Made by a program: the position numbers and the translations under genes
DNA from: a virus
Direction: 5' to 3' (one strand)
DNA length: 64,000 nt
Virus record (IMG/VR): IMGVR_UViG_3300044615_001997
The notes under the pieces: model-generated
The model's input: the letters and a program-made list of their open reading frames with translations, nothing else
The model's database searches: none
What the model was told of the DNA's origin: nothing
In this document: piece after piece, positions 56,266-58,457 of the stretch
Numbering within the stretch: position 1 is the stretch's first letter
Layout: every line of letters starts with the position of its first letter

Positions 56266-56288
56266 TTGCTCCTATTTTTTGTTATAAT
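56250..56288 (+). promoter_or_regulatory. Candidate phage-specific early promoter, copy 2 (extended -10)
   Basis: TAACCCCC-N17-TTTTTTGTTATAAT. Confidence 0.55.
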
Positions 56289-56418
56289 ACTATGCTGACG
56301 GTTTGTCGGTCTATTAATTGAAAATACTTTCTTAATAGACCTATTCTTAAATAGCAATATACTTTTTTTAAAATTTATTTTACTGGTTAATTTTTAATAA
56401 TTTTTAGCTGGCAGCTAT

Positions 56419-56612
56419 TGTTGCGCTCGGGTTATATATAACAAAGATCTATTATATATACGCTCAACGGGAATGACTCCCACCACATAAAGGAACAACT
56501 TACCTGGTTTAGTTGTATGGCGATAATCTGAAATGGTCCGCAGCTATTTCAGCAAACCGCTCGCTAGATAGTCGATGTGCGCAAATTGACTATATTAGAA
56601 CGTGGCGCAACA
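56419..56612 (+). ncRNA. Unclassified multi-hairpin structured RNA (~195 nt)
   Basis: Closing stem TGTTGCGC/GCGCAACA enclosing five hairpins; no ORF. Confidence 0.45.
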
Positions 56613-56616
56613 CCCA

Positions 56617-56645
56617 TTGACTTTTAGTGTGTATTTATATATACT
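56617..56645 (+). promoter_or_regulatory. Near-consensus sigma70 promoter driving the large ncRNA
   Basis: TTGACT-N17-TATACT; predicted start site ~56652. Confidence 0.75.
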
Positions 56646-56651
56646 AATAAT

Positions 56652-57365
56652 CTGGCCGTGTGCGGCCATAAGATAACCCCAGTAATGGGGACAAAGTGAA
56701 CTCTCATCACCGTGAGAGTTTGCGGGGATCTTCGATCCCTCTGAGCACACAAGGAGGTAATCATCTTTTCTGCCTGTTGAGGGTTAGAAAAGTTGCTCGT
56801 CGGTTGAGACCCGATGGGTGAGTGCGAAAGTACAATAAGGAAACCTTTAGCTGATATGCGAGCAACTGGACTGGTAATCCAGCAATCGCGTTTAGCAGCC
56901 TAGAAGTTGTCGCTAGAGCAATCTAGAGGCAACTACGAAACAGTGACGACCAGTCACAGGACTAGTAGCGCATCGATTCCCTCAAAAGGGGAGTTGGCGG
57001 AACCCGCAAGCACTAGTTCGGAAATCTCGGGTGAACATGACTTGTCTCGAAAGAGACTCATTAACCAAAAAGGAAAGCCTTGCGGCTTCTGCAGTGAAAG
57101 ATGACTTCGTCCCAAGTTACGCTTGGGGTTTGCTGGCTCCCTAAGGCCAGTATGATAGAGGTTAGGATAATCTTTGGATACCGTTGCTGGTATTGGAGGG
57201 TGCGTAGCCTTCACAGAGAGGAACTAGCGAACAACTGTGGTTGAAACCCTGACTCAGGGAAATTGAGTCGTCATTGCTGGGTACGTTGCAAAACAACGTG
57301 GATAAAACGGAGAATCAATATACTCCGTCAGAGACCAGTACTTATAGCTGTAATCTCAAGCTATA
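56652..57365 (+). ncRNA. GOLLD-like giant structured RNA (~715 nt)
   Basis: ORF-free, GC-richer and packed with hairpins (GGGATC-TTC-GATCCC, GTCTC-GAAA-GAGAC); 3' end GGTACGTTGCAAAACAACGTGGATAAAACGGAGAATCAATATACTCCGT...TAGCTGTAATCTCAAGCTA matches my recollection of the GOLLD 3' domain. Confidence 0.7.
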
Positions 57366-57372
57366 TAATTTT

Positions 57373-57439
57373 CTCGACTTGGCGAGTATAAATAGGATGT
57401 AAGCCAAGAGCGTTGCAGGTATGAGTATCTGCAGAATTC
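57373..57439 (+). ncRNA. Pistol self-cleaving ribozyme-like element
   Basis: P1 CTCG/CGAG with loop ACTTGG; linker TAAATAG; TAAG-CCAAG (pseudoknot) -AGCG; P3 TTGCAGGTA/TATCTGCAG; P2 GGAT/ATTC. Confidence 0.65.
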
Positions 57440-57655
57440 GGAGCGGTAGACCTTCTAGAGGTTACGGCTCCCTGGCCCAGACTTGAGTCACTTCAGGTCA
57501 AAAGTGTACTGAGGCACGTGAGTGAACCATACAACAGGTACATTGCCAGAACAAAAACGGGGGTGCTTCTTAATTTGTTGCCCGTATACTTTCAGGGAGG
57601 TGTGGAGATCAAAATCATTGATTACTCTTGTACGGAAAAATCTCGTACACCTCCC
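57440..57655 (+). ncRNA. Run of unclassified RNA stem-loop modules
   Basis: GGAGC/GCTCC hairpin, CTGGC/GCCAG junction, ACGGG/CCCGT, GGGAGGTGT/ACACCTCCC. Confidence 0.4.
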
Positions 57656-57661
57656 AAACTT

Positions 57662-57783
57662 TTGTAGGATATGCTGAGGGTTCTGGAGGATATGGTGGGG
57701 ATCATGGGCTCCAGCACGATAGGTTGCTGCCAGTCGTGGCATCGGTAAGCATATATAATTGAGAGTGATGCACTCACCTACAA
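57662..57783 (+). ncRNA. Unclassified multibranch RNA
   Basis: TTGTAGG/CCTACAA closing stem; ATATGC/GCATAT, CTGGAG/CTCCAG, CACGA/TCGTG, GAGTG/CACTC. Confidence 0.45.
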
Positions 57784-57788
57784 CTTAC

Positions 57789-57912
57789 TTTGAATGCGTG
57801 ACGAAAGTCTCGTTACGAATAGTGCTAAAAAATAACTCGCCCATAACTATACACCGACAGGATTAGGCGAAAGTCGGGGAAGCAATAATCCACGTTAGCA
57901 TACGCATTCAAA
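57789..57912 (+). ncRNA. Unclassified RNA with a double pseudoknot
   Basis: TTTGAATGCGT/ACGCATTCAAA closing stem; TGCTAA/TTAGCA; CCGAC/GTCGG whose loop pairs with both TCGCC and TAATCC. Confidence 0.5.
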
Positions 57913-58026
57913 AATTTGTTTTGGCTTACTGAGCTGCTGTGGTGAGCTCGGCAAGGAACCTACAAAGTTTCACAACAGTGAGTGCCACAGCACTTGTGAA
58001 ACTAGGAACCAGCCAAAACAAATTTT
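57911..58026 (+). ncRNA. Unclassified three-way-junction RNA with kissing loops
   Basis: Perfect 16-bp closing stem; two hairpins whose loops GCTGTGGT and GCCACAGC are complementary. Confidence 0.55.
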
Positions 58027-58034
58027 TAGCTATT

Positions 58035-58365
58035 TGAGGTTAGCCTCATAAGGTGCACGATGGCCGACTACCATCTAGTGAGATCCTACTCATGATTGAA
58101 GCCAGGTCGTTCTGGTAAAATGGGGCTGGTTACCGCAACCCGCTGACGGTCAGCGAGAGTCAGAAAGTTTAACTTTCTTCAGGCGAGGCGCGTTTATGTA
58201 TCTAGGACAGGCAAGATCAGTCGTGTCTGCATGATGGTACTGCGTCGTAGACCTTGAGACACGACAGCCGCAAGTTTCGAACGGGTAGCCTCCTCCGTTA
58301 ATGGGTGACTAGGGAACATGTGCGGCGGCGCATAGGACTCCAAAAGTAGAATCAATAAACCCGCC
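58035..58365 (+). ncRNA. Unclassified ~330-nt structured RNA with long-range pairing
   Basis: AAGGT/ACCTT, ACGATG/CGTCGT, TACCATC/GATGGTA, GTCGTGTC/GACACGAC, GGCG.GTTTAT/ATAAAC.CGCC. Confidence 0.45.
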
Positions 58366-58457
58366 AAAAATTTTTGTGGTATCTAATACATACACACATA
58401 CCACTGACCCAGCAGTGAAGCGACACAATCTGGGCACTTTTTTAGCTATTAAACATT

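Follow-up and report, generated by a model that had tools for sequence, protein, structure and literature searches.

The block at positions 56266-58457 of the window, i.e., the 64,000-nt stretch of viral DNA analyzed here, is best explained as a stable-RNA operon in which a fixed genomic slot holds swappable, independent non-coding RNA genes (probability about 0.7); the stable-RNA-operon architecture taken by itself is highly probable. The block contains a GOLLD RNA, a pistol ribozyme and about eight RNA modules without a match in Rfam, most of which have comparative support. It is a mosaic in which two known families, each in an unusual form, stand beside these uncatalogued motifs, and not demonstrably one machine. 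Judged by comparative folding, the modules are folded plus-strand RNAs under selection, each with its own closing helix. "Uncatalogued" refers to Rfam, and some of the motifs may overlap with those of the survey of 10,000 phage RNAs (PMC10690425).

Composition and Genomic Setting of the Block

An earlier note on this DNA had described a GC-rich block devoid of credible ORFs, with a GOLLD-like RNA, a ribozyme and a back-to-back array of stem-closed modules with A/U linkers, none of them a tRNA. All of these points were confirmed by Rfam, folding and the orthologues, and by the following analyses. The longest ORFs in 56266-58457 are two minus-strand frames of 86 and 84 aa and a plus-strand frame of 65 aa, and gene calling in an independent assembly places no gene in the matching 2,192-bp gap. 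Furthermore, locus L092, which stems from another assembly, is 100% identical to the block across 1,659 nt. The GC content is 0.446 in the block and 0.464 for 56418-58437, compared with 0.374 in the window. The Rfam scan, which the note had proposed as a check, placed GOLLD at 56958-57362 and pistol at 57372-57439; beyond these two, no credible match was found in the block at E ≤ 10, leaving the other modules without a family. ARAGORN and Rfam detected no tRNA or tmRNA anywhere in the window, and the three tRNAs of the genome each lie more than 40 kb from the block. The modules do not resolve to known tRNA, tmRNA or intron families, which were looked for with the same two programs. Closing helices and A/U linkers were found by folding, and most modules have negative folding z-scores in most orthologues, down to −6, with the exception of G and H, which are not above shuffles.

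The window belongs to a viral record of 121 kb, which encodes a tail sheath and, by a weak match, a probable HK97-type capsid protein. Relatives with 81-88% capsid identity reach about 200 kb. The island is located after the last virion-module genes and before small genes without assigned function. A BLAST search against isolate phages gave no useful match for the block, and pattern scans of viral and metagenome contigs for GOLLD plus pistol and for modules D, F, and H returned nothing or chance matches. A host search via the tmRNA tag led to a single 793-bp contig in a MAG and was uninformative.

Orthologous Islands and the Genomic Slot

The flanking proteins led to four divergent versions of the island, in L095, L096, L108, and L110, the window being the fifth. 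Structures were predicted from the window alone and tested against a column-resampling null. For most modules five related sequences were available, and their kinship inflates covariation counts, so that these are supportive rather than formal statistics. Compensatory changes above the null were obtained for module A, both GOLLD domains, the pistol ribozyme, and modules D and F; the comparison of homologous islands suggested in the earlier note revealed compensatory changes in most modules.

Each of the five orthologues contains GOLLD together with modules A-D and F-I, and L095, L096, and L108 each hold extra modules. Modules are gained, lost and re-ordered as whole units. Throughout the clade, the same pair of anchor genes flanks the slot. 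Among 12 more distant relatives examined, 11 have a tmRNA in the slot in place of GOLLD. GOLLD was found in none of the 13 relatives' records searched. In the nearer of these distant relatives the slot also contains tRNAs, a pistol ribozyme and a different set of modules, and modules A, C, and I bridge the GOLLD-bearing and the GOLLD-less groups. For the function of GOLLD, a natural comparison is provided by sister lineages in which the one locus is occupied by GOLLD in some and by tmRNA/tRNAs in others.

Phage tRNA/tmRNA clusters carry stable RNAs of unassigned function, like rnaC and rnaD of T4. The block resembles such clusters in having one promoter, stem-closed units, A/U linkers and unit-wise exchange. 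This likeness, already proposed before, is supported by the tmRNA and tRNAs which the relatives hold in the same slot, and the linkers that follow the CCA ends of the relatives' tRNAs resemble those of the block. Unlike in tRNA/tmRNA clusters, the slot of this subclade is without tRNA or tmRNA; its units contain pseudoknots, exceed those of the clusters in size and have unrelated sequences.

Promoters and Transcription

Promoter P1 (56253-56288, plus strand) consists of a C-run (56253-56259) and an extended −10 element (TGnTATAAT, 56280-56288). The motif was found at the slot head in all 11 relatives checked. A second copy is located at 55201-55236 of the window, upstream of a gene for a 172-aa protein, and occurs in relatives as well; no further copy exists in the 121-kb genome. 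P1 is followed by an AT-rich leader (56289-56417, plus strand; GC 0.24) with weak hairpins (z −1.6 to −3.9), for which covariation is absent (p = 0.77). A promoter-like site P2 (56617-56645, plus strand) matches the consensus at 10 of 12 positions and is kept in three of the five orthologues, a hairpin taking its place in the other two. P2 is therefore optional, and two lineages would have to rely on P1 for the transcription of GOLLD. Of the two promoters claimed in the earlier note, P1 is thus conserved, whereas P2 is dispensable. Taken by themselves, promoter consensus matches do not exceed chance (12 vs. 15 expected).

The absence of a clear terminator between 56652 and about 58440, also claimed before, was borne out by a pattern search of the plus strand, in which no terminator pattern was found between 56652 and 58440. 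Together with the linkers, which are like those after the relatives' tRNAs, this fits a single precursor which is processed like a tRNA cluster. Among the mismatch-type changes in predicted pairs, 41 are G-U and 15 are A-C, an excess which points to a plus-strand RNA.

GOLLD RNA

The GOLLD RNA (RF02032; 56653-57362, plus strand) has a length of about 710 nt and consists of a 5′ domain (56653-56957) and a conserved 3′ domain (56958-57362). The full model (1-416) was matched with 141.2 bits and an E-value of 1e-38, which lies under the gathering cut-off of 150 bits, and the GOLLD RNAs of all five orthologues match with 128-141 bits. Based on the E-value and the covariation, and despite the score below 150 bits, it is read as a divergent member of the family. 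The folding z-score is −8.3, and the two domains show 15 and 17 compensatory changes vs. 1.5 and 2.9 expected. The 305-nt 5′ domain covaries, and the total length is within the 700-830 nt of the family; the GOLLD RNA of Streptococcus agalactiae comprises 700 nt. Like known members, it is phage-borne and combines a full-length match of the 3′ domain with a covarying 5′ domain. It differs in its neighborhood. Members of the family typically, though not strictly, lie next to tRNA genes, whereas both the window and the orthologous loci are free of tRNA; instead, it occupies the place of the relatives' tmRNA and tRNAs. Moreover, it is followed by a pistol ribozyme, an arrangement that was not found in the searchable literature.

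GOLLD RNAs form RNA-only cages (10.1101/2024.12.08.627333, PMC12990946), and by homology the GOLLD RNA described here should form one as well. A tmRNA-like tag inside GOLLD was considered and rejected: the ending with LAA and a stop codon occurs in the window only, and a helix explains the changes. In a search for shared complementarities between GOLLD and the rest of the block, only three 7-mers were common to all five islands, which was judged, without a formal null, to be chance level.

Pistol Ribozyme

The pistol ribozyme (RF02679; 57372-57439, plus strand) was identified with 47.4 bits (cut-off 34.5) and has a variant P2 and junction. It shares P1, the pseudoknot, P3, the A-rich linker, the catalytic core nucleotides and the phage context with known pistol ribozymes (PMC4604425, PMC6154101). 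The equivalents of purine 32, G33, G40, C41, and G42 as well as the A-rich linker are intact compared with the published core (PMC6154101). Compensatory changes preserve the pairing of P1, P3, and the pseudoknot, and their count for the ribozyme exceeds the null; P3 covaries, with no pair broken. The pseudoknot comprises five of six pairs in the window, with an A-A mismatch, and all six in three orthologues.

The deviation from the canonical form concerns the cleavage site. [quoted passage not shown] Whereas the known ribozyme has a GU junction of 2 nt, an AA or a single A is present here, and P2 is weak. All five GOLLD-linked copies lack one nucleotide on the P2 side, four of them are one nucleotide shorter before P2, and all five can be parsed either with a 1-nt junction and a P2 of 3-4 bp or with an AA junction and two Watson-Crick pairs. 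In the latter parse P2 has two covarying pairs, including a swap from GA/UC to AG/CU. Most pistol ribozymes of the relatives are canonical, with a GA junction and four pairs in P2. This conserved variant tests a supposedly strict rule of pistol catalysis. On balance, the variant is probably active, and the cut is predicted near 57435/57436.

The earlier note had inferred that the ribozyme, with host RNases, cuts a precursor into a giant scaffold RNA and several small RNAs. A role of the ribozyme in trimming and releasing GOLLD was not supported: the cut would lie at the 3′ side of the ribozyme itself, an ORF of 57 codons stands between GOLLD and pistol in L108, and in GOLLD-less relatives, where the last strand of pistol leads directly into the closing helix of module A, the ribozyme abuts another RNA. 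Together, the position of the cut and the contact with module A suggest that pistol would generate the 5′ terminus of the following RNA. In the window it adjoins the 5′ end of module B, so that the phage ribozyme abuts a downstream 5′ end in two different contexts, which bears on its role.

Theta ribozymes trim the tRNA upstream of them. These HDV-like ribozymes sit at the 3′ ends of phage tRNAs (PMC10879173). The arrangements are alike, a ribozyme of a self-cleaving family punctuating a phage stable-RNA array, whereas the fold is different and the pistol cut at its own 3′ side would define a downstream 5′ end. Ribozymes of bacteria and phages have been proposed, so far without proof, to process polycistrons (PMC6765202).

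Module A

Module A (56420-56611, plus strand) is a multi-helix RNA of about 190 nt with an A-rich internal loop and a loop-loop pairing between 56537-56543 and 56577-56584; it has no Rfam family. It shows 31 compensatory changes vs. 10 expected. A model built from it matches the RNA following pistol in nine distant relatives (E 4e-7 to 6e-3), with exactly one element in each of the nine and no match in 441 kb of control DNA. In the resulting family of 14 sequences, 41 of 55 pairs covary in the model-fitted alignment, and the A-rich internal loop is kept throughout. The loop-loop pairing comprises 6-7 bp in 11 of 14 members and is lost in two; the window copy has 4 bp with a compensatory change. 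Module A is the strongest new family of the block, with 14 loci, and its alignment is ready for structure work. It occurs without pistol in the window and in L075.

The kissing loops of module A contain palindromes with a 4-nt core in most members. L095 and L110 have 6-nt palindromes and have lost the cross-pairing. Such loops would allow pairing between molecules.

Modules B to I

Module B (57440-57585, plus strand) has no Rfam family and consists of a hairpin, a three-way junction and a long-range pseudoknot (57511-57517 with 57563-57569). Its six helices recur at matching offsets in the five orthologues at 40-44% identity, and the pseudoknot covaries; the automatic covariation test is invalid for this module, as the alignment failed at that identity. 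Module C (57595-57655, plus strand; z −3.7 to −6.2) is a bulged hairpin with a variable loop and no broken pairs, and a look-alike was found in three GOLLD-less relatives.

Module D (57663-57782, plus strand) is a branched RNA with 89-94% conservation and three compensatory changes (p = 0.005). A T-box-like pairing with tRNA ends was rejected, since the bases are stem-paired in L110. The region 57715-57741 contains two mutually exclusive short helices, both of which are kept across the orthologues; module D may possibly be a switch. Module E (57789-57912, plus strand; z −3.3) is predicted to be closed by an 11-bp helix and was found in this phage only, a homologue being absent from the fetched loci.

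Module F (57910-58027, plus strand) folds into a three-way junction, in which the 6-nt loops at 57937-57942 and 57985-57990 are complementary. Across the alignment 97% of the cells are paired, five pairs have changed on both sides, and the compensatory count is above the null. The putative loop-loop helix is invariant across the orthologues. Negative results of whole-record searches with the RNA models weigh little, as these searches missed known positives; direct searches of the fetched slots gave no homologues of module F or H either.

Kissing-loop RNAs include the phi29 pRNA and the lysine riboswitch. The manA RNA cages are likewise kissing-loop assemblies (10.64898/2026.07.01.735769). With about 118 nt, a three-way junction and complementary loops, module F shares this design principle with all three, as does module A with its multi-way junction and loop-loop pairing. 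The likeness is one of design, without any Rfam or sequence match for A or F (for module F and phi29-type pRNA, none at E ≤ 10), and the pairing may be intra- or intermolecular. As short kissing-loop RNAs form large RNA-only assemblies, modules A and F are direct candidates for cryo-EM.

Module G (58051-58270, plus strand) comprises multiple hairpins as well as long invariant strands and may have a pseudoknot on its 3′ side. Several of its hairpins stay paired despite sequence change, while the automatic test is weak (p = 0.17). Module H (58275-58365, plus strand) consists of two tandem H-type pseudoknots, with 99% of the cells paired and two compensatory pairs. G and H may be a single RNA. 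In L096 and L110 an ORF of 65-76 codons with Cys/His residues is inserted between them at the same point.

Finally, module I (58376-58443, plus strand) comprises a hairpin, a small H-type pseudoknot (58402-58434) and a U-tract. The second stem of the pseudoknot occurs in three covarying versions at 10 distinct loci in both subclades. Module I is probably the 3′ end of the operon.

HDV and hammerhead ribozymes were not detected on either strand of the five islands by hand-written descriptors, which were unvalidated on positives, and Rfam was likewise negative. Resemblances to RNase P, HDV-like and twister-sister RNAs were dismissed, as by eye the conserved cores are absent. In addition, the small RNAs have no T-arm, no conserved tag frame and no significant match to the 11 tmRNAs of the relatives, so that neither tRNA mimicry nor a targeting of tmRNA was apparent.

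Proposed Mechanism and Alternative Explanations

In the stable-RNA operon, P1 would drive a single long transcript. Host nucleases would cut the A/U linkers and trim the products to their closing helices and pseudoknots, as in tRNA clusters. The self-cut of pistol would give the next RNA a defined 5′-OH end and would also part GOLLD, bearing the ribozyme body, from the downstream string starting with module B. GOLLD would assemble into a homo-oligomeric cage like its relatives, and the small RNAs would act separately from it. At somewhat less than even odds, these could be accessory host-interaction RNAs, serving as translation support or as decoys for those defence proteins of the host that bind or cleave RNA; this guess is based on the slot, which otherwise holds translation-related RNAs and swaps its content freely.

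The earlier note had seen in the block the best candidate for an undescribed system in the window. As an integrated machine, GOLLD would act as a scaffold or cage, and the ribozyme would free the small RNAs to become its cargo or co-assembling partners. The joint presence of GOLLD, A-D, and F-I in all five orthologues would suit such an integrated machine, although common descent alone predicts it. The complementary loops of modules A and F and the empty interior of the GOLLD cage, which is proposed to hold RNAs (10.1101/2024.12.08.627333, PMC12990946), would agree with it as well. However, modules vary independently and come and go, three of them (A, C, and I) are present in GOLLD-less relatives, an ORF can separate GOLLD from pistol, and no striking conserved pairing links GOLLD to the modules apart from the three shared 7-mers. 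Cargo or co-assembly is thus not supported, and the block has the character of a mosaic, made up of independent RNA genes, rather than of an undescribed system; an integrated machine is quite unlikely. A wider version, in which the slot is a depot of several self-assembling or catalytic RNAs, is rather unlikely too: modules A and F would form oligomers via their loops and possibly join the GOLLD cage, an active pistol variant would mature them, and GOLLD would replace the tmRNA in host takeover. Concerning pistol itself, a slow or dead ribozyme, kept as a folded spacer or 3′-end protector while host RNases do all processing, is a possible though less favored explanation. All five copies are non-canonical at the junction and P2, and the window copy has the A-A mismatch in its pseudoknot, but neither the core nucleotide equivalents nor the A-rich linker are altered, compensatory changes keep P1, P3, and the pseudoknot, and selection for the AA-junction register is suggested by the swap from GA/UC to AG/CU in P2.

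The unmatched Rfam introns and ribozymes, the negative hand-written HDV and hammerhead descriptors and the lack of a Pfam match for the inserted ORFs argue against some modules being cis-acting or mobile, i.e., undescribed ribozymes, intron-like or ORF-carrying elements, with G and H maybe forming one RNA of about 320 nt which tolerates an ORF. This is improbable, although the Cys/His ORF is located at the same G/H site in two lineages, G and H combine multiple pseudoknots with long single strands that do not vary, and new ribozyme classes were found beside known ones (PMC6765202). A DNA-level element, such as a replication origin or cruciforms, or a decayed coding sequence is largely refuted and has a negligible probability. 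The block contains many inverted repeats and sits where the virion module meets small early-type genes; against this stand the two Rfam RNA families, the strand bias of G-U over A-C, the covariation of pseudoknots and the lack of iteron-like direct repeats.

Further Observations in the Related Phages

In the tmRNA-bearing relatives, at least 10 more stem-closed modules without an Rfam match were seen, several of which are shared between loci with visible covariation. They are located at 6970-8420 and 9840-9990 of L058 and in the slots of L075, L086, L088, L100, L104, and L106. Unusually long tmRNA tags of about 30 residues occur in the clade (L058, 7137-7571; L104, 12769-13189; L106, 16452-16884). 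In L059 (G009), L091, and L100 the T-loop of the slot tmRNA is split by a group-I-intron-like insertion, which carries a minus-strand ORF of 136 aa with a LAGLIDADG-like start.

The ORF between G and H (L096, 14139-14369; L110, 3307-3504) encodes a small basic protein with a CxxC motif and later Cys/His residues, and its insertion apparently has a short duplicated flank. The 57-aa ORF product between GOLLD and pistol (L108, 5354-5527) is basic as well. Neither has a Pfam match. Outside the slot, the minus strands of L059 (888-923) and L075 (675-711) each contain an abiF RNA motif whose score exceeds the Rfam cut-off. Finally, the window encodes at 42387-51200 a Thr/Ser-rich repeat protein of 2,937 aa, which is probably a tail fibre or adhesin and whose orthologues have He_PIG Ig-like matches.
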